Assembly: GCA_002763225.1 (NCBI GenBank)
Contig: PFAI01000008.1
Coordinates: forward strand, 1 to 17,608
Length of the DNA: 17,608 bases
DNA from: Candidatus Diapherotrites archaeon CG10_big_fil_rev_8_21_14_0_10_31_34
GTDB lineage: Archaea; Iainarchaeota; Iainarchaeia; Iainarchaeales; 1-14-0-10-31-34
Direction of reading: 5' to 3'
Shown piece after piece: positions 1 to 17,403 of the stretch. Position numbers and translations under genes: made by a program. Below the pieces are notes generated by a model. That model was not told the DNA's origin, made no database searches, and saw nothing but the letters and a program-made list of their open reading frames with translations. Position 1 is the first letter of the stretch; each line of letters begins with the position of its first letter.

Positions 1-2553
1 GTCGCAGTAGGAGACGCAGATTGTTCAGGAGGAGCAACCCCTTCAGTAACAGGATTAACTGTTGACTTAAGTGTTGGAGGAACAACTTCTGTTTCAGGAG
101 GGAAAACCTTCTATGCTGATATGTATTCAGGAACATCAGCACAAGAAGCAAACTTCAACAACCAGTCAGTAACTAACGCAAATGTTCCATCCTTATACTA
201 CAACGGAGCAAAATCCTACACTTATAACGCCACAAGCTATTCAACTTCAATCCAAGAAAGACTGACCTTTATAGCAGACATAAAGTTTGATGAAGTAACA
301 AACAAAGCATTAGTGGCAGAAATAACTTCAGGAAACCTGAAATACAACCTTAACTTAGGACAGGGAATTCCAAGATATGAAGCATTAGGCGGTTCAGTAA
401 ACTTCACTGATGATTCAAACGACAATGTAAGAGTTCCTTTCTTTGGAGACGACTATCTTGTGAAAAACGTCACCACATCCTATGTCGAATTAATCAAGAC
501 TTCAGGAGAAACACAGTACTCTGAAGGAGACAGAATAACTGATTTAGAAGGATATGACAATGAAATGTACTATATTGAAATCGGGGCAGGAGGAACTTCT
601 GGTTCAACACAGAAAATTACCTTGTCTTTGTATAAAGAAGACGGGACTCTTGTAAAAACTGATTTATTCTCTACAGGAGATGTAGTATTCTATGACGACA
701 GCACAGGACAGCCAGTTTTGGATACATTGGTTAACATCAGTGAAATCCTGAAAACAGTTGTATCTGACGCAGAAATCTACACACCAATAGTTCTTGTAGG
801 AAGCTCAAGAGTATTATTGTACAACGATAAAGGATATCCTTATGACGCAACAAAACCAGCTGACGATTATGACTGGGAAGTTAAATTAAGCTTTTCAGGA
901 GACTACCTGAAAGACATTAACATCCAGAACAGGTCAGAATACGACTTTGTCGGAACAGACGCTTTGTTAGTTGGCGAAGAAGCTGTATTCCCTAACGGTA
1001 CAGGAAAAATATCTTTTGTAGGGTTGCAGTTGCCTGAATTTACAGGTGTTTCAAAAACAGAAAGAACAACTGTATTTGGAATAGAAGACGGAGTCTTAAG
1101 CTACAAAGATTCAACTTATGAAGCAACACACTCAGTTCCATTGTACACCGTAAGCCTAGCAATGTCAGATGAAGGAACAGACACTCAAAGTATTGATTCA
1201 AAAACAATCTGGTATAAAATAAACACAACTGATTCAAACATTTTGGGAAACAGTTCAGCTGATGGTTCAGGAACAGGATCTGAATGTATTGGTGACTCAA
1301 ACTACATTAACGGAGAATTAATCCGCATTAACAGAATCTTCAAAGGAGGAAGCGGAAGCGATGACAACGCATTCATTGGAAACCAATTCTATCATATTGG
1401 TGATGCAAATGTTGACATTAACGGAATGCAGTTCACTTTCTCAGGGGTAAACGACACAAATCTTTGTATCTACCTGACAGCAGACGGAAACGTTACCTTT
1501 AAGAAAGAAACTTCCACAGGAACTTTAATCCAAGAAGTCTATTATGCAGACGGAAACTATGGAGTTAATATTCCAATAACTTTTGAAGGAGCAAGTTCTG
1601 TAAACCATGACTATGAAATAATGGTTGATGAAATAGGTTCAACTGCAAGACTGTGGTTATTCTTTGACTCACAGGCATTAACTACACAGTACAACAAGCA
1701 CGTGCAGTTATTAGGAACCGATATTCAGGAAGACACAACTTTCGGAGACTATGGTTTCTATTTGCCACACAGCCAGTACTTACCAACAAGACTTGACGGT
1801 GACACAAACTACAACTCAAACGAATACTTTGTAGCAAACATAAGAATAGATGAAGACGAGGACAGTACATATGACCTGAATGCATTCATTAACACAGCAA
1901 CAGGCAACTTAATTGCGCTGCCAAACAACGAATTAAGCACCTACTCTTATGAAGCAGACTATAACCACAATACAAAGTTTTTGAGTGAAAGCACTACCGC
2001 AACTTATCCTTCATCAGCATACACTGACTTTGGAACACACATTGTCTTAAGCGACCACAAATACACCGCAACAGTTCCAGAAAACAGACCTCAAGCAGAA
2101 CTTCTGGTTTCAGGAACAGGAACTTCAACAACTGTTACAGGCGGAGAAGAGTTGACAATAGCTGAAGGAGCAACAGGAAGCACTACAAGCGGAACAAGAG
2201 TAACTGTAACTAATATCAACTATGATGCAACTTGTACTGGTGGAACCGGAACAGGATCAGGTGTTTGCACAGTTTCTCCAACAATGTATAAAAGCTTTGT
2301 TGCAGCAAGAAACCTTGTAAAAGACGATTCTGGAGCTTCAGCAGCCACACACGTTATTGTAGGAGGCTGGAAAGTCAACGCTTTAGCTGACGGAGTAACT
2401 GTTGGTGGCCAGAGCTTGAAAGACATATTAACCGGATCAGGAAAATATGTTGCAGACAAGACTGATGACGAAGACATAATTGTTGCAGGATTCAATGCCA
2501 GCGGAACAGGAACCGCTGCACAAGAATTAATTAACGCAATAGAAAACCTTTAA
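1..2553 (+). CDS. S-layer (surface) glycoprotein, 5'-truncated by the window edge
   Basis: Frame 1 is open from base 1 (VAVGDADCSGGATPS...) into the listed ORF, so the true start is upstream of the window. The protein is T/S/G/D/N-rich and acidic with about 12 N-x-S/T sequons. The C-terminus (HVIVGGWKVNALA...DIIVAGFNASGTGTAAQELI) resembles the Methanococcales/Thermococcales S-layer C-terminal domain (LILVGGPxxN...VAG...T..AA). Higher GC and a preference for AAC/GAC/TAC/TTC codons suggest high expression. Confidence 0.85.
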   Translation, partial: VAVGDADCSGGATPSVTGLTVDLSVGGTTSVSGGKTFYADMYSGTSAQEANFNNQSVTNANVPSLYYNGAKSYTYNATSYSTSIQERLTFIADIKFDEVTNKALVAEITSGNLKYNLNLGQGIPRYEALGGSVNFTDDSNDNVRVPFFGDDYLVKNVTTSYVELIKTSGETQYSEGDRITDLEGYDNEMYYIEIGAGGTSGSTQKITLSLYKEDGTLVKTDLFSTGDVVFYDDSTGQPVLDTLVNISEILKTVVSDAEIYTPIVLVGSSRVLLYNDKGYPYDATKPADDYDWEVKLSFSGDYLKDINIQNRSEYDFVGTDALLVGEEAVFPNGTGKISFVGLQLPEFTGVSKTERTTVFGIEDGVLSYKDSTYEATHSVPLYTVSLAMSDEGTDTQSIDSKTIWYKINTTDSNILGNSSADGSGTGSECIGDSNYINGELIRINRIFKGGSGSDDNAFIGNQFYHIGDANVDINGMQFTFSGVNDTNLCIYLTADGNVTFKKETSTGTLIQEVYYADGNYGVNIPITFEGASSVNHDYEIMVDEIGSTARLWLFFDSQALTTQYNKHVQLLGTDIQEDTTFGDYGFYLPHSQYLPTRLDGDTNYNSNEYFVANIRIDEDEDSTYDLNAFINTATGNLIALPNNELSTYSYEADYNHNTKFLSESTTATYPSSAYTDFGTHIVLSDHKYTATVPENRPQAELLVSGTGTSTTVTGGEELTIAEGATGSTTSGTRVTVTNINYDATCTGGTGTGSGVCTVSPTMYKSFVAARNLVKDDSGASAATHVIVGGWKVNALADGVTVGGQSLKDILTGSGKYVADKTDDEDIIVAGFNASGTGTAAQELINAIENL

Positions 2554-2858: not shown

Positions 2859-2929
2859 CTGCTGTATTTCTTATTTTAACCCCTAATCAATTAGTTTTAT
2901 TTTAAATCTTTTTGCTGTGTTTACTTTTT

Positions 2930-3547
2930 ATGGAAAGAAATAATTTGATTGCATTAATTTTAGTATTATTAATTTTTGTTTTTGCAGGAGTGTATTTTTT
3001 TTATCAGGAAGAACAGTTTATTTATCAGGAAGAAATAAATGGAATAGTGTTTAATTCAAATTCTTTTTCTTCTCCTCAAAAATATTTTTCTGAAACAGTT
3101 AAAGAAAGAGATTCATTTATTTTTGTTTCTGAAGTTGATTCAAAGCAAAACAATTTAGTTGATGCTTCAATTCAGGTTGCTTTGGTTTCAGGGATTTTTT
3201 CTGCTACAGGAAAAAACATTTCTTCAGTTATTTTTGTTTTAAATGAACAAAATGAACTAGATTACTGTCAGACCAATTTTGGGGAAAAATCCAAAAACGA
3301 AAAATTAACTAAAAGGCAATGTGAAAATTTATTGAATAACTCAAGCGATTTCAAGTTTATAGCAAAATTAGCTGATGAAAAACTAAATAAACCTCAGGTA
3401 GAAATGTATAATAATTCTGTTGTAATAAAGCCGACAAGAAAAGAAGAAACAATAATTATTTTGCAGCAGTTATTTACTGCAATTTATTCTGATTCAGCTG
3501 AAATAATTGATAAAATTAATTCAATACTGCATTCCATTACATCTTAA
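2930..3547 (+). CDS. Hypothetical membrane-anchored protein (205 aa, single N-terminal TM helix)
   Basis: ATG at 2930 is preferred to TTG 2912 because a TATA-like TTTAAAT at 2901-2907 sits at leaderless spacing. Hydrophobic LIALILVLLIFVFAGVYFFY is followed by a soluble domain with two Cys. No family recognised. Confidence 0.75.
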   Translation: MERNNLIALILVLLIFVFAGVYFFYQEEQFIYQEEINGIVFNSNSFSSPQKYFSETVKERDSFIFVSEVDSKQNNLVDASIQVALVSGIFSATGKNISSVIFVLNEQNELDYCQTNFGEKSKNEKLTKRQCENLLNNSSDFKFIAKLADEKLNKPQVEMYNNSVVIKPTRKEETIIILQQLFTAIYSDSAEIIDKINSILHSITS

Positions 3548-5480: not shown

Positions 5481-6719
5481 TTAACACTTCATTAATTCTT
5501 TTAATACTGTGGTAGCATAATTGCCTTTTGATAAATAAAAGCTTATCCTTGCTTTTAATTTTCCTTCATTAAATTCGTCTTCAGAAATTTCCTCTAATTT
5601 CAAATCTTTTGGAAACAAAACTATTTCTTTTCTTGTTCCTTTAGAAGACATTTCTCTCATTTCTTTTACATAAAATTGTTTTAATTCAATTTTTTCTTCT
5701 TCTAAAATCTCTTTTTCAATTATTCCTATTTTTCCTTCAGCAAATTTGCTTTCAAATCCAGCCAGCAACCCTGATGGAACTCCGTTAATTAATACATCTC
5801 CTTTAGTTTCTTTTAATCCAATTCCTTGTGTAATCCTTTCCTGAATTATTTTATTAAACAAAAAACTTTGATAAGCATGAACAAATAAATACCTTAAACT
5901 TTTTGGAAGAGTCCTGAATGCCCCAATAAAATCGTCTGGATTTTTAACTAAATGATTTAGCATTGCTCTTTCATACCTGAATTTTATCGGCATGTCCTTT
6001 AATGCTTTGCCAAAATCTCTTGTTTTCTCTAATTCTGTTCTTGCATTTCTTATTTCTTCTTCTTCTAATTCGTTTGTTGCAGTTAAATAAATCATTACTC
6101 CTTTTTCCGGGTTTCCTTTAACAAATTCTTTTCCAACTAAATGGCTTACTTTTCTTATTCCTCCAAATCTTTGTTCCCCAAAATAGTTTGCTATTCCTTT
6201 ATCTATTTCTTTAAAACATTCTTTAATTCTTTTTTCTGTTTCTTTTTTGTCTAATTCAATCTGTCTTACAGTTATTTCAAATTTGTTTCCTTTTAGCATT
6301 CCAATTCTTAGTCTTTCTTTTTTCCATTCAGGATTAGATAATTTAACAAATTTGCTTTTAAACTCAGCTACTCTTTCTGTTTCTGGCTTGAAAAAACAGA
6401 TTTTTTGGGAAGTAATTGCTCTTTTGTCTTTTACTCCTGCATAAGTAATTCTTTTTTTTGATATTCTGTTGTATCTTGCAAGCCTTCTGATTGCTTCATT
6501 TACATCTAAATTAAATTTCTGCATTTCCAAATACAAGTACTTGCATTCTTTTTCGTTTTCCGGAATAATTAATTTATCTTGTCTTTCAAGGCATTCTTCA
6601 TCGAGCCATAAATCACAGTCTTTTCCTTCTTCGCTTACTTCAATTACTTTAAAGTCTTTAATTCGTTCTTTTATTCTTCCGCCTATTCCTTTTGTTTTAG
6701 TTGAATAAAATTCGTTCAT
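5481..6719 (-). CDS. truD: tRNA pseudouridine(13) synthase TruD
   Basis: Motifs DFKVIE, AGVKDKRAITSQ (catalytic Asp), LKGNKFEI, NYFGEQRFG, HAYQSFLFN and FYLSKGNYAT. Confidence 0.95.
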   Translation of the reverse strand: MNEFYSTKTKGIGGRIKERIKDFKVIEVSEEGKDCDLWLDEECLERQDKLIIPENEKECKYLYLEMQKFNLDVNEAIRRLARYNRISKKRITYAGVKDKRAITSQKICFFKPETERVAEFKSKFVKLSNPEWKKERLRIGMLKGNKFEITVRQIELDKKETEKRIKECFKEIDKGIANYFGEQRFGGIRKVSHLVGKEFVKGNPEKGVMIYLTATNELEEEEIRNARTELEKTRDFGKALKDMPIKFRYERAMLNHLVKNPDDFIGAFRTLPKSLRYLFVHAYQSFLFNKIIQERITQGIGLKETKGDVLINGVPSGLLAGFESKFAEGKIGIIEKEILEEEKIELKQFYVKEMREMSSKGTRKEIVLFPKDLKLEEISEDEFNEGKLKARISFYLSKGNYATTVLKELMKC

Positions 6720-6729
6720 ATTTAATCAG

Positions 6730-9462
6730 TTATTTGTATCTTAAAAAGGCTCCGATTCCTCCAAAGCCTTTAAAAAATTGTTCGCCTTCGCTTGTTTCAG
6801 TTGAAATAATTTTGATTGATGCTCCGCCTTCTTTTGCTTTTTCTTCCATGAATTCAGCGTACTCTAATTCTTCTAATTCCTCTATTTTAGTTGACTTGCA
6901 TTTACTGCATTTAAGTTTTGGTTTGCTTTCGTCCTTTATAATAAGTTCTTCAATACTATTGCATGAAATGCACTTAAATTTTATTGCAGTCCATTCAATT
7001 CCTTCTGAAAGCAATACTGTTTCTGCTTTTCCTATTTTTAGTGCTTCAATTACTTCATTTTCTCCGTAAGCTACTAAACCATCTTTAACTATTTCTTCCA
7101 AAAACCTGTTCATCAATCCTCGTTCTTTCATTAAAGCCGTGTCTCTTAACAATTCCTCTGATTTTTGAATCATTTCTCTTATTCCTGATTCATCTGTATA
7201 AGAAGTGTCTAAAACCCCAATTATTTTTTCTTTTAAACGGTAATCTAATGCTTCTTTTTCTAAAAACCTGTTTTTTGTTATTCCTGGTCCTCCAACAATT
7301 ACTCCTTTTAAGTTTTCTCCGTATTCTTCAAAAGTCTTGTTTATTTTTTCGCTTGTTCTTTTAAAAAAGTCTTGAGCAGCTTCTTCTCTTAATCTTTCAA
7401 ACCTGTGAGAACTATTATGGACTATTAACCCGTTTGCAATGAAATTCTGGTTTAATACACTAATATCAACTAAACCAGTTTTTTTATTTGATTTAATTAT
7501 TTTATTGATTTTTGCAGGAATCAAAGGAATTTCCATCAATTTTTTTAATTTTGTTTTCAATTTTTTGTTTTTGACGTAACCAAGAATAGATTCATTAAAC
7601 ACTTTTTTGCTCATTTGTCGTTCATTCCTGAAAAAACTGTTTACTTTTGGGAACAACTCCAAATTATATCCCTGTTCTTCAATTATTTTTCTGATTTTTT
7701 TTCCTGAAACAATTATCTGCCTTACATTGCTTCTAATGTGTTTTCGGTTTTTAATTAGTGCCATTATTTTTTCCTGCTTTTTCTTTAAGCTAAACCCAAT
7801 TAACTTTGAAAATAATTTTAGTGATTCATTATCAGATATGTCAACTGTAAACCTTGGGTTATCTGAATAAGGGTTTCTTTTGTTGTCATATTTATGCAAA
7901 GAAGCAATAATTCCAAACCTTAAAAGTGAAAGCCTTAATTGTTCAGCCATTTTTTTGTTGTTTATCCCTAATCCTATTCCTCTTTTGCTTGTTGCATATC
8001 CTTCTGCATCATAAAACCCTTTTATGAATGAAGCTAAAACATCATTTTCTGATTTTAATATTTTTAATGGGATTTCAGTGTTTCTTGCTTTTTTTATTTC
8101 AGAAAAGTTTTTTTCAATAAACTTAACAATTGACTTTCCATAAATTCTTATTTGATAGCAGCCTTTGTTTTCCCTGAATTTTATTGAACTATTAGCATTG
8201 AAAAAATCAGAAACTTTGTTTTTGTAGTGTTCTGCAAGTTCTTTATTTTGCTCTGAAAAACTTATTCTTTCTTTTTCAAAACTTCCGTCTCCGACAAAAT
8301 AACCAATTATTTTTGAGAGTTCTTTTGTTAATTTTTTTGGCATAACCAAATCAGAATTGGCTTTTGTTTGAGTTTTAATAAACTTCTCAAAGTCAATATT
8401 TAATTCTTTGCATAATTTTTTTATAAGGTTTTTTCTTACATCTCTTTTCCCTAATTCAATAACTGAAACTCCTGTTTGAGTTATTCCTGTTTTTTTTCCA
8501 AGTTTTTTCTGTGAAATCCCTGCTTTTTTTCTTGTATTAATTAAAACATTTTTCCCGTTTTCTGAAATATGATATGAGTTAAAGCAGTCAAATGATTCAA
8601 GGAATTGAGTTTTTCCTTTAATTTCAATTTTTTCAGGCATTAATAAGAATTCCCCGACTTTTAGTTCTTCTGCAGATTTTTCTTTAATTTCTTCTCCTGC
8701 AGTAAAAAACAAATGGTCTTTTGAAGAAACAATTTCTGTTCTTGGGTATTTTGTTATTATTTTGTAAACGCTTTTTTTTGTTTTCCATTTGTCTTTTATA
8801 TTTGAATCAGTAAAAACATTATTCTTAAAATCAAAGCTTTTTACCTGTAAAGGGTTATGAGACTCTTTTATTGGAATAATTGAGCCGTCATTTAACTGAA
8901 TTAGTGTTTCAGGAGAAAGGCATTGTCCTCCTGCCCTTGTTTTTCCTGCTACATTAGAAGTAAAATGTCCTACAACTTCATAGCTTTTTCCTTTTAATAT
9001 TGCTACTGTTGCTTCTCTTTTATCTAATACAATTAATGCATGCACTTCTTTTGTTTTCTGCATGTCTTCAACTGGATCTAAGTGAAAGCTTGAATCACAC
9101 CAATATAATTTTGTTTTTAATGGTTTGATTGGGTTTAAAGGAAACATTTTGATATCGCTTCTTCCTTCTGTTTCTGAAACATTTCCGCAAAATAATACTA
9201 AACCATTTTTTGGGATTTTGAAATTAATGTTTTTTAGAAAAGTGTCAAGCTTTCTTAATGCTCCCTGCACATTTTTTCTTGTCTGAGGACTCTTAATATT
9301 TGAGCTCTGGCTTAATTCTTCTGTTATTTGTCCCATTACTGAACTTCTGTCTGCATTTTCCGGAATGTATAAACTAATTAATTCAGTTCCTCTTCCTTTA
9401 AACTTTTTTAGTTTCTTTAATTTTTTTCTGAATATTTCTATTGAGTCATCTATTTCTGACAT
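6730..9462 (-). CDS. prf1: Peptide chain release factor aRF1 precursor containing an intein (407 aa after splicing)
   Basis: GTELISLYIP, NIKS, YWCDSSF (YxCxxxF), AGGQ...SSHRFERLRE, VGGPG, a CISC/CSKC zinc-ribbon insert and a C-terminal FGGIGAFLRY. SD-like GTGAT upstream of the ATG. Confidence 0.95.
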   Translation of the reverse strand: MSEIDDSIEIFRKKLKKLKKFKGRGTELISLYIPENADRSSVMGQITEELSQSSNIKSPQTRKNVQGALRKLDTFLKNINFKIPKNGLVLFCGNVSETEGRSDIKMFPLNPIKPLKTKLYWCDSSFHLDPVEDMQKTKEVHALIVLDKREATVAILKGKSYEVVGHFTSNVAGKTRAGGQCLSPETLIQLNDGSIIPIKESHNPLQVKSFDFKNNVFTDSNIKDKWKTKKSVYKIITKYPRTEIVSSKDHLFFTAGEEIKEKSAEELKVGEFLLMPEKIEIKGKTQFLESFDCFNSYHISENGKNVLINTRKKAGISQKKLGKKTGITQTGVSVIELGKRDVRKNLIKKLCKELNIDFEKFIKTQTKANSDLVMPKKLTKELSKIIGYFVGDGSFEKERISFSEQNKELAEHYKNKVSDFFNANSSIKFRENKGCYQIRIYGKSIVKFIEKNFSEIKKARNTEIPLKILKSENDVLASFIKGFYDAEGYATSKRGIGLGINNKKMAEQLRLSLLRFGIIASLHKYDNKRNPYSDNPRFTVDISDNESLKLFSKLIGFSLKKKQEKIMALIKNRKHIRSNVRQIIVSGKKIRKIIEEQGYNLELFPKVNSFFRNERQMSKKVFNESILGYVKNKKLKTKLKKLMEIPLIPAKINKIIKSNKKTGLVDISVLNQNFIANGLIVHNSSHRFERLREEAAQDFFKRTSEKINKTFEEYGENLKGVIVGGPGITKNRFLEKEALDYRLKEKIIGVLDTSYTDESGIREMIQKSEELLRDTALMKERGLMNRFLEEIVKDGLVAYGENEVIEALKIGKAETVLLSEGIEWTAIKFKCISCNSIEELIIKDESKPKLKCSKCKSTKIEELEELEYAEFMEEKAKEGGASIKIISTETSEGEQFFKGFGGIGAFLRYK
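7414..8922 (-). mobile_element. Intein (503 aa) with an Xre-type HTH and a LAGLIDADG homing endonuclease, inserted at GGQ/S of aRF1
   Basis: Block A begins CLSPETLIQLNDG (Cys181). Block B is IVSSKDHLFF. LAGLIDADG motifs are IIGYFVGDGS and FIKGFYDAEG. Blocks F/G are LVDISVLNQNFIANGLIVHN, followed by Ser+1. Removing residues 181-683 restores RAGGQSSHRF. Confidence 0.95.
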
Positions 9463-11882: not shown

Positions 11883-12836
11883 TTAAATTTTTTCTAATAC
11901 TTCAAATAATTCTTCCGGATTTAACACTGGTTTGTCATTTAAATTGTCTTCAATTATTCTTGGACAAGCAGTATTAACATAACAGTCAATGTTTATTCCC
12001 ATTAAATATTCTGATTTAATGAAATCCATTGAAAAAATAAAAGCTTTTTTTCCTTTTCTTTCAATTCTTTTTTTTAATTCTAAAGCCAGTTCTTTTCTTA
12101 GTTGGCCTTTTTTTCTGCTTACTAAAATCCCAAAAACTTTTGCGTTCATTGCTCTTGCAATACTTCCATATCTTTTTCTTACAAAAATGTTTTTTTCTTC
12201 AACTAAATCCTTTATTTCTCCGTTTAATGGATTAAAAGCCAGAACTTTTTTGTCTGTTGAAACTGCTACACCTAAAGGATGAAAAAAACCGTCTCCAATA
12301 TACAAAAAACCATCAACTTTTTTTTCTATTTTTACTGCAGAACTCTGGTCACAGCCCAAAACCTGGCCTTTGCAGTCAATTTTTTCTCCGCCTTTTTCCA
12401 ATAAAACAGTGAACTTTTTTTTCTTTAATCCTTTTTCTATTTCTTTTAAAATATTATAAAATTGCACTGCACACAATAACCCTACTTTTTTTATTTTTTC
12501 GTTTTCAAGCATTCTTTGAATTTTATCTAAATTAATTTCTTTAACTGAATATTCTAATGGAACATAAACTACTTTTATTTTTGAATCAGTATATTTTGCA
12601 TGACCTAAATGAATTAATAAATCTGCGTTAAATTCTTTCATTTCTGTTTCAGCTAAATCGCAGGCTCCCCAGACAGGATCCATTACAGCAATAACTTTTG
12701 CCTTGGTTTTTCCTTCAATTCTTTCAATGATTTCAAGTGTTTTTCCTTTTAATCCTTCAGGTAACTGAAGTATAACAGTCTTTGCATTCTTTTTTTTTAT
12801 TTCTGTAATAGCTTTCTTTATATCTAATTTAAGCAT
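11883..12836 (-). CDS. dph2: Diphthamide biosynthesis enzyme Dph2 (2-(3-amino-3-carboxypropyl)histidine synthase)
   Basis: LQLPEGLK, HLGHA, GDGFFH and KKGQ, with the three 4Fe-4S Cys motifs WGACD, VLGCD and TACPR. Confidence 0.93.
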   Translation of the reverse strand: MLKLDIKKAITEIKKKNAKTVILQLPEGLKGKTLEIIERIEGKTKAKVIAVMDPVWGACDLAETEMKEFNADLLIHLGHAKYTDSKIKVVYVPLEYSVKEINLDKIQRMLENEKIKKVGLLCAVQFYNILKEIEKGLKKKKFTVLLEKGGEKIDCKGQVLGCDQSSAVKIEKKVDGFLYIGDGFFHPLGVAVSTDKKVLAFNPLNGEIKDLVEEKNIFVRKRYGSIARAMNAKVFGILVSRKKGQLRKELALELKKRIERKGKKAFIFSMDFIKSEYLMGINIDCYVNTACPRIIEDNLNDKPVLNPEELFEVLEKI

Positions 12837-16665: not shown

Positions 16666-17403
16666 TTACTTTTTTTTCTTTGCGTCTTTGCTTTTATCGT
16701 CTTTTTTGTCGTCTTTCTTTTCTTCTTTCTTTCCTTTGCCTTTTCCTTCGTCTTTCTCTTCTTTTCCTTTTTCTTCTTTCTTTCCTTTGCCTTCTTTTGT
16801 TTCTTCTTCTTTTTCTTCTTCTTTTTCTTTTGCTTCCATTCTTTTCTTGATTCTTTTTGGCAAAGTTCCAATGCTTTCAATATTTGTTCCTATTCTAACA
16901 GAAGTTTTGCATGAAATCTTTGATTTAACTTTTGTTAATGAAGCTTTAACGTGCTTTAAATTTTCTTCGTCAATTAAAACACTCATGATTTTTTGTCCTG
17001 GCCTTACTCTTGCAGCTCTTCCAATTGGTTTTCCAAAAGGATGGCTCATTCCTTTTGTTACTCTGTCTGCTCCTGCTCCCTGTGCCTGCTTGTTTTCCCT
17101 TAAAATCTGATAAGGATAAATTCTGATTCTTAAAAAATAGTTTTCTTTTCCAACATGCTTGGTTAAATCTCTGTTAACTGCAACTCTGGTTGATTCAAGT
17201 GAATTATCTCTTACCTGAACTTTTTCTTCTGCAATCAAGTCAACTATATGAGAATATTTTTTCAATGGGTTTCCGGTATTAAACTGTCTTGTTTTAACTC
17301 CAGGAGTAGAACCAATATAGTTTCTTCTGTGCACTTTAATGGCTACTCTAGTATAAGACGGCTTGTCATGTGTTCTATAACATTTTCCTGGTCTTAAACC
17401 CAT
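16666..17403 (-). CDS. rpl10e: 50S ribosomal protein uL16 (L10e) with a long K/E/D-rich C-terminal extension
   Basis: MGLRPGKCYR, QVRDNSLESTR, IRIYPYQILRENK, GAGADRV and GMSHPFGKPIGRAARV. SD-like GTGAT upstream. Confidence 0.96.
   Translation of the reverse strand: MGLRPGKCYRTHDKPSYTRVAIKVHRRNYIGSTPGVKTRQFNTGNPLKKYSHIVDLIAEEKVQVRDNSLESTRVAVNRDLTKHVGKENYFLRIRIYPYQILRENKQAQGAGADRVTKGMSHPFGKPIGRAARVRPGQKIMSVLIDEENLKHVKASLTKVKSKISCKTSVRIGTNIESIGTLPKRIKKRMEAKEKEEEKEEETKEGKGKKEEKGKEEKDEGKGKGKKEEKKDDKKDDKSKDAKKKK

Follow-up and report, generated by a model that had tools for sequence, protein, structure and literature searches.

Background

Inteins are known mainly from proteins of replication, repair and nucleotide metabolism. 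In the available parts of Novikova et al. (2016), the core components of translation are described as containing few inteins, and IF2 is listed as an archaeal host. The accessible portion of a structural study (Beyer & Iwai 2022, PMC8966425) describes accessory domains, some of them helix-turn-helix (HTH)-like, that lie after the endonuclease and before the C-terminal HINT part and modulate DNA recognition; in the VMA inteins, according to the same study, an unstructured loop of 28-32 residues links the N-terminal HINT part to the endonuclease. Our literature searches found no paper on a natural intein in aRF1 or eRF1. A giant-virus paper that deals with eRF1 places inteins, in the sections available, in polymerases and not in eRF1, and the terms 'release factor', 'termination', 'eRF1' and 'aRF1' are absent from Novikova et al. 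(2016) as far as its main text and two of its three supplementary files go, although supplementary file 1 could list such a host. Here we describe a window of 17,608 nucleotides (contig PFAI01000008.1, assembly GCA_002763225.1, from a small groundwater archaeon) in which the gene for the release factor aRF1 is interrupted, directly after the glutamine of its GGQ motif, by a 503-residue element with the features of a homing-endonuclease intein. A first-pass annotation of the letters alone had remarked that aRF1 is not a classic intein host, which agrees with the literature that can be searched.

Results

The insertion in aRF1

Translation of the precursor gene gives an uninterrupted frame of 910 residues. 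The intein, 503 residues long, takes up precursor residues 181-683 (7414..8922, minus strand): it opens with CLSPET at position 181, and the C-extein resumes at position 684 with SSHRF. Removal of the intein leaves an aRF1 of 407 residues. With a slash marking the splice point, the junctions read ...VAGKTRAGGQ/CLSPETLIQLND... and ...FIANGLIVHN/SSHRFERLRE.... The parts on either side are those of a release factor. Pfam finds eRF1_1, eRF1_2 (in two stretches) and eRF1_3, together with Intein_splicing, LAGLIDADG_3 (two stretches) and HTH_3; the NCBIfam equivalog model aRF1_eRF1 (TIGR03676) scores 428 bits over two stretches, against a cut-off of 234.7, which identifies the protein as aRF1; and the motifs SSNIKS, YWCDSSF and AGGQ are all present in the translation. 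When the precursor is matched to the solved structure of Halobacterium aRF1 (4af1, E 9.8e-67), residues 11-181 correspond to residues 17-188 of the chain and residues 684-909 to residues 188-412. Since both halves meet at residue 188 of 4af1, the insertion falls precisely between GGQ and S, where intein-free orthologs have GGQS; it is in frame, and without it the host protein is continuous. The precursor matches more than 30 proteins of the same architecture with E = 0, far beyond chance. The coordinates, junctions and sizes given in the first-pass annotation proved exact on translation, and its assignment of the GGQ glutamine as the -1 residue and of the serine as the +1 nucleophile is borne out by both translation and alignment.

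Residue conservation was read from an alignment of the intein with 90 database relatives (91 sequences). Cys1, Ser67, His70, Asp486, His502 and Asn503 are invariant in 91 of 91, and Ser+1 is conserved in at least 90%. Block B reads S67-K-D-H70, with serine in the position of the usual threonine. In the endonuclease Asp212 is invariant and Glu307 at least 90% conserved; each of the two LAGLIDADG helices ends in such an acidic residue, and the predicted fold is the expected alpha-beta-beta-alpha-beta-beta-alpha one, with residues 195-399 matching I-Tsp061I at Z 18.3 and I-DmoI also matched by Foldseek. The domain families score well above their cut-offs for Intein_splicing (57 bits against 35.8) and HTH_3 (41.4 bits against 23), and LAGLIDADG_3 reaches 72.9 bits over its two stretches.

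An AlphaFold2 model of the intein, built from the 91-sequence alignment, has a mean predicted local distance difference test score (pLDDT) of 95.8 and a predicted template modelling score (pTM) of 0.93. In it the N-terminal HINT part (1-119) is followed by five helices (121-185), the endonuclease (~200-375), a helical domain (380-463) and the C-terminal HINT part (467-503); the five helices coincide with the HTH_3 match and are predicted to form a Cro/C1-type HTH. Having a HINT fold, Cys1, the residues of blocks B, F and G, Ser+1 and a precise point of insertion, the 503-residue element is, by its sequence and predicted structure, a canonical class 1 intein with a nested LAGLIDADG endonuclease and two accessory modules (Table 1). 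The Pfam domains and conserved residues thus bear out the earlier proposal of a homing-endonuclease intein.

Table 1. Features of the interrupted aRF1 gene, neighbouring genes in the window and further inteins or LAGLIDADG-interrupted genes of the source genome
Feature	Position	Strand	Remarks
aRF1 precursor gene	6730..9462	-	910 codons plus stop; sole aRF1 detected in the assembly
N-extein, aRF1 residues 1-180	8923..9462	-	Stop-decoding N domain (NIKS, YxCxxxF) and start of M domain; GGQ at its end
Gln -1 codon	8923..8925	-	Last N-extein codon
N-terminal HINT part, intein residues 1-119	8566..8922	-	Conservation and model; beta-rich
Cys1	8920..8922	-	Within N-terminal HINT part
Block B Ser67-x-x-His70 (position of His70)	8713..8715	-	Within N-terminal HINT part
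XRE/Cro-type HTH, intein residues ~120-190	8353..8565	-	Pfam HTH_3, model, deletion map
LAGLIDADG homing-endonuclease domain, intein residues ~191-378	7789..8352	-	Pfam, conservation, model, structure matches
LAGLIDADG motif 1 GYFVGDG (position of Asp212)	8287..8289	-	
LAGLIDADG motif 2 GFYDAEG (position of Glu307)	8002..8004	-	
Second helical accessory domain, intein residues ~379-465	7528..7788	-	Model; between endonuclease and C-terminal HINT part
C-terminal HINT part, intein residues 466-503	7414..7527	-	Conservation and model
Block F Asp486	7465..7467	-	Within C-terminal HINT part
Block G His502-Asn503	7414..7419	-	Within C-terminal HINT part
Ser +1 nucleophile	7411..7413	-	First C-extein residue
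C-extein, residues 181-407 of spliced aRF1	6733..7413	-	Remaining M domain and C domain
TruD	5481..6719		
Diphthamide synthesis gene	11883..12836		
Methyltransferase, 393 residues	15456..16637	-	UPF0020/RMKL-like and N6_N4_Mtase matches; below NCBIfam cut-offs for TIGR01177 and Trm14
Ribosomal protein L10e	16666..17403		
Nine further inteins or LAGLIDADG-interrupted genes of the source genome (G000, by contig)	C35:39975-43772, C15:157-3846, C41:2690-7780, C25:4974-9359, C3:4151-7927, C22:26637-28178, C52:26388-28754, C13:31821-35606, C55:2-2239		

The sole aRF1 and its probable dependence on splicing

The assembly is a metagenome-assembled genome of 1.04 Mb in 65 contigs, estimated to be 81% complete. 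The first-pass annotation had suggested looking for a second, intein-free aRF1; a PF03464 profile search and tblastn found none in this assembly, but only the split gene and one Pelota (345 residues, contig 24; TIGR00111 237 bits against a cut-off of 177.65), which has no GGQ. Intein-bearing relatives likewise have the split gene and a Pelota-like match only, including one genome that is a single contig and 94% complete (G009), and none of the 47 genomes of the phylum with a split-type match has a second aRF1 match at E<=1e-15.

The GGQ loop must reach the peptidyl-transferase centre, and an insert of 503 residues in that loop should therefore disable release. As release by the precursor would be disabled and no intein-free aRF1 was found, we infer that termination in the source archaeon must rely on splicing, to the extent that a genome 81% complete can tell; the same claim in the first-pass annotation gains support from the lack of a paralog. 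A HemK-related archaeal methylase (203-residue open reading frame, G000:C13:15866-16396, minus strand; TIGR00537 166 bits against a cut-off of 87) is a candidate for the enzyme of GGQ glutamine methylation, and could presumably act only after splicing.

Distribution and length variants

A search of proteins of 500-1593 residues at E<=0.001 matched 461 cluster representatives. Among the 120 matches listed, all 120 have the intein at GGQ/C...HN/S as far as the pattern could read, the exceptions being one without GGQ (P0037) and five in which only the C-terminal junction escaped the pattern; 13 of the 120 carry no HTH family in precomputed Pfam annotation. Their source names include Diapherotrites/ainarchaeum, Aenigmarchaeota, Woesearchaeota and Nanoarchaeota. 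Some are labelled 'eRF1/intein/homing endonuclease' by JGI, and in NCBI they often go under the names 'LAGLIDADG family homing endonuclease' or 'helix-turn-helix domain-containing protein'. Of 79 related loci in species-representative genomes, 61 are aRF1 genes occupied at the GGQ/S site: the strict pattern fits 44 of them, the junction is followed by RY or RL in 10, 3 are truncated at the end of a contig, the title of 1 names Fermentimicrarchaeum and 3 have a -1 residue other than Gln. Record titles of occupied loci also name Pacearchaeota, Iainarchaeum, Forterrea and Nanohalobium.

The remaining related loci are mostly inteins at GlmS or IF2 sites and free endonucleases. The former are distant relatives with 21-31% identity (loci L092, L093, L094, L107; L099, L100, L102, L103), found at the GlmS site GIGH/C...HN/SRWAT (titles Methanocaldococcus, Paceibacterota, Gammaproteobacteria) and at the IF2 P-loop site GHTDAGK/C...HN/TSLLD (titles Nitrososphaerales, Thaumarchaeota, Micrarchaeota). 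A scan of viral contigs found no aRF1 intein; three loci there match the endonuclease part only (residues 195-424, 22-32% identity).

Closer to the source genome, 41 relatives were searched, and eRF1_2 is split in 10 of the 38 with an aRF1 match; the site is occupied in three of six genomes of the genus and in none of the three in the rest of the family. Across the phylum, 201 of 215 genomes have an aRF1 match, uninterrupted in 154 and with a split-type score (E 1e-20 to 1e-29) in 47, a count that rests partly on genome-level E-values; in 40 of the 47 there is also an intein that shares at least 40% identity with the aRF1 intein described here. The first-pass annotation had asked whether the site is catalogued and how patchily it is filled. 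Patchy it is, both in the genus and in the phylum, but the number of cluster representatives shows that it is not rare.

At the same site there are variants of 431-435 residues without the HTH, from which exactly intein residues ~111-199 are gone, and mini-inteins of 130-144 residues, which have lost residues ~111-475 and with them both accessory modules as well as the endonuclease. Because both forms occupy the site without it, the HTH module is optional. Judged by their sequences, the full-length, HTH-less and mini forms would represent successive stages of decay at one site. The mini-inteins at GGQ/S (G032 (L012), L105, L108, L111, L114, L115 and L119) are compact natural splicing domains, predicted to splice, with Gln at -1 and Ser at +1.

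A residue other than Gln stands at -1 in 3 of the 61 aRF1 loci that carry the intein (L077 in G215, L090 in G217 and L084 in G216). Two, with titles naming Woesearchaeota and Aenigmatarchaeota, read GGW/C (codon TGG) and one, with a title naming Aenigmatarchaeota, reads GGM/C (ATG). The N domains of these alleles look normal, with NIKD or NIKS and YxCxxxF. Genome G216 has an uninterrupted aRF1 of 419 residues besides the split one; no eRF1_2 match other than the GGW allele was found in G215 (1.2 Mb) or G217 (1.1 Mb). In the intein of G217, LAGLIDADG motif 1 reads GGGG instead of GDG.

Mobility, selection and population data

Visualizing intein presence on an extein tree of 37 rows, which leaves out one genome (G029) whose gene was missed by the pattern, we observed that the 9 carriers need 7 changes of state, compared with a mean of 8.1 when states are shuffled; branches starred on the tree force at least 3. 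Presence is therefore barely clustered on the host tree. Over 86 precursors, intein and extein identity are only loosely related (Spearman 0.31), and in 1310 of 3655 pairs (36%) the inteins resemble each other more closely than do the release factors that carry them. The aRF1 precursor and P0057, for example, share 40% identity in the exteins and 53% in the intein.

Intein and extein data each reject the tree of the other in approximately unbiased (AU) tests (intein data against the extein tree, delta lnL 2810, p 2e-6; extein data against the intein tree, delta lnL 1856, p 2e-76), although the topologies are FastTree trees, each built from the data set on which it then wins. The likelihood gaps are very large despite the use of such topologies.

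Three congeneric alleles of the intein are 81-82% identical, with no indels. From a codon alignment, the ratio of nonsynonymous to synonymous substitution (dN/dS) is 0.16-0.19 for the intein, 0.12-0.14 for its endonuclease and 0.18-0.30 for its HTH, compared with 0.09-0.13 for the exteins; all modules of the intein are under purifying selection. In all three congeneric pairs dS is lower in the intein (0.51-0.71) than in the exteins (0.83-1.03), which suggests that the intein was transferred after the species of the genus had diverged, although dS is high (0.5-1.0), the genome is rich in A+T and the three pairs lack independence.

The source genome, of ~1 Mb, holds at least nine further inteins or LAGLIDADG-interrupted genes, and hence at least ten inteins in total. 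The further hosts are EF-2, MCM, PolD DP2, a HerA-like ATPase, a T2SSE-type ATPase, NifU/IscU, geranylgeranyl reductase, a copper P-type ATPase and one open reading frame without any other Pfam family. The closest paralog of the aRF1 intein among them is that of EF-2 (29% identity over residues 26-503).

The sequencing runs that contain the stretch are groundwater and aquifer metagenomes, in seven of which at least half of its words are present; no RNA data set is among the runs listed. Logan contigs of four further runs (X7-X10) bridge both junctions with the intein present.

Neighbouring genes

The 393-residue methyltransferase of the window, probably a relative of tRNA guanine-N2 methyltransferases on the strength of its family matches, lies among translation-related genes, namely TruD, the diphthamide synthesis gene and ribosomal protein L10e. 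Two open reading frames on the plus strand, one of at least 850 residues that runs off the 5' end of the window (1..2553) and one of 211 residues (2912..3547), have no Pfam family at E<=0.001. The G+C content of the stretch with the longer of the two is 0.38-0.41, compared with ~0.28-0.33 in the rest of the window.

Discussion

Given the anatomy, conservation, distribution, selection and discordant phylogeny that we observed, we consider it very probable that the insertion is a mobile, selfish class 1 intein lodged in the GGQS loop, between Gln and Ser, of the only aRF1 gene product. Its scattered presence, the discordant trees, the purifying selection and the intein load of the genome argue that it is an element of the homing cycle. 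We propose that the precursor would be translated whole and that Cys1 would then initiate splicing by an N-S acyl shift at the Gln-Cys bond; the resulting thioester would be attacked by Ser+1, Asn503 would cyclise with the aid of His502, Asp486 and the block B residue His70, and an O-N shift would restore a normal GGQ-S peptide bond in the 407-residue aRF1. The excised intein would act as a DNA endonuclease specific for the conserved sequence that encodes GGQ-S, where it would cut aRF1 alleles lacking the intein, with the HTH adding DNA contacts; repair of the cut allele would copy the intein into it. In this way the intein may persist as a selfish parasite of an essential and highly conserved site, passing across the DPANN archaea through a cycle of gain, decay of the endonuclease to HTH-less and mini forms, and loss.

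Several observations weigh against this proposal, in addition to the limits given above for the phylum count, the tree topologies and dS. We stress that splicing, cleavage and homing are read from conservation. Around the insertion site, 6-11 of 30 bases differ between the intein-free alleles of congeners and the flanks in the source genome, and the changes between intein-bearing and intein-free flanks are scattered and mostly synonymous, with no clear pattern of resistant and sensitive alleles. In the Logan contigs of four runs no intein-free allele was seen, that is, no joint that skips 7414..8922; the joints listed have sides of 20-46 letters and lie at other places. Since contigs drop rare variants, this result is no evidence either way on rare intein-free alleles. 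Ongoing homing in the source population is not supported by the contigs at hand.

The first-pass annotation had gone further and suggested that splicing, if conditional on redox state, metals or temperature, could serve as a global switch, with a stop-binding precursor and an intein that tunes termination and readthrough. We regard this as very unlikely. The intein does block the catalytic loop of the only aRF1, and since none of the 47 split-gene genomes has a second copy, slower splicing would affect termination; yet three of six congeners live without the intein, its presence is nearly random on the host tree and its phylogeny conflicts with that of the host. Cys1 is a redox-sensitive nucleophile, and of the other cysteines of the intein (113, 171 and 255) Cys171, in the HTH, is conserved in at least 90% of sequences, the only one of the three to be conserved; however, neither the +1 residue nor any of the last 13 residues of the N-extein is a Cys that could form a disulfide trap. 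Conditional inteins are known from other hosts (Pyrococcus RadA, mycobacterial DnaB and SufB), but here we find neither a trap or sensor nor conservation across a clade: no Cys lies nearby, and the intein is absent from three of six congeners and from ~154 of the 201 genomes of the phylum with an aRF1 match. Moreover, the genome has at least nine inteins besides it, and purifying selection on an endonuclease serves mobility, not regulation of the host. Our results thus give no support for a switch that serves the host.

A bolder form of the idea, which seems to us a very long shot, is that splicing at GGQ gates all termination in about a quarter of the species of the phylum, where the precursor, which retains the stop-decoding N domain and the C domain, would compete at stop codons if long-lived or sensitive to redox state or temperature, and the intein would at least sometimes have been co-opted as a valve. 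The GGW/C and GGM/C alleles fit such a valve; in two of these genomes no other aRF1 was detected. If it were true, the rate of splicing would set the efficiency of termination, and readthrough, throughout the cell.

It is likewise highly improbable that the intein is an immobile relic, which entered once in an ancestor of DPANN and has since been inherited vertically, with an inactive endonuclease and occasional loss. A single entry would account for the use of the same site in all examples seen (120 of the 120 listed proteins; 61 of 79 loci), but not for intein and extein trees that reject each other, nor for the 36% of pairs in which the intein is more similar than its host, nor for the lower dS of the intein within the genus. 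Degenerate forms do exist, as in the mini-inteins and the GGGG-for-GDG allele; here, however, the catalytic residues of the endonuclease are conserved, and its dN/dS is 0.12-0.14.

That the insertion is an artefact of assembly, or has inactivated aRF1 and left termination to another factor, is barely credible even for a metagenome-assembled genome that is 81% complete, given a frame open over 910 codons with all splicing residues intact, junctions that are both covered by contigs from other runs, exteins under strong purifying selection (dN/dS 0.09-0.13) and, as the only other gene of the eRF1 family, a Pelota without GGQ.

We conclude that, in a gene present as a sole copy, the best-conserved motif of the release factor of archaea and eukaryotes harbours a fully equipped and apparently mobile intein. 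The catalogue of inteins gains a well-populated site with full-length, HTH-less and mini forms, spread over DPANN lineages, and with it both a natural system in which to follow homing across deep lineages of episymbiotic archaea and a source of compact splicing domains whose junctions have Gln at -1 and Ser at +1. The product names in use call for caution in annotation, in that an endonuclease or helix-turn-helix label hides an essential translation factor. Views on how inteins work are unchanged.

Comparison with known inteins

The aRF1 intein is an element of a textbook kind; its host belongs to an unusual class, and its site is common in databases, although we found no paper on it. Its closest structural matches by VIA-align are to the intein of TliVMA (7qsu, Z 36.1, root mean square deviation (rmsd) 2.5 Å over 324 aligned residues; 7qss, Z 35.9, rmsd 3.4 Å over 391), followed by PI-TkoII (2cw7, Z 33.7, 426 aligned), PhoVMA (Z 31.9) and PI-PfuI (1dq3, Z 29.0, 387 aligned). 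Foldseek matches 7qss at E 6.7e-23 and phmmer matches 1dq3 at E 2.5e-14, and mini-inteins of DnaB superpose on the HINT part with Z ~21 and an rmsd of 1.3-1.5 Å.

With the TliVMA and PhoVMA inteins (V-ATPase subunit A of Thermococcales; 7qss, 7qsu, 7qst), as far as the accessible description of those structures goes, the aRF1 intein shares the combination of HINT, nested LAGLIDADG endonuclease and a helical accessory domain in the same position, ahead of the C-terminal HINT part, and like them it is inserted in the catalytic loop of an essential protein. It differs in its host and its site, GGQ/S, and in an identity of only 19-22%; in addition, it carries a Pfam-detectable XRE-type HTH of ~70 residues where the VMA inteins, by the same description, have an unstructured loop. 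PI-TkoII and PI-PfuI, inteins of an archaeal polymerase and ribonucleotide reductase, resemble it in their multi-domain architecture and extra DNA-binding modules, but have other hosts and sites and 20-26% identity.

The conditional inteins of Pyrococcus horikoshii RadA and mycobacterial DnaB and SufB are alike in that an essential active site is blocked and activity depends on splicing. Unlike them, the aRF1 intein has no flanking Cys, uses Ser at +1, and is patchy and mobile.

The inteins of other translation factors (aIF5B/IF2 and EF-2) are distant relatives, with 21-22% identity at the IF2 site (titles Nitrososphaerales/Thaumarchaeota) and 29% in EF-2. From these related inteins it follows that translation factors can host this intein family. 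Those of IF2 and EF-2 sit in the P-loops of GTPases, whereas the aRF1 intein sits in the peptidyl-tRNA hydrolysis motif of a factor that is not a GTPase.

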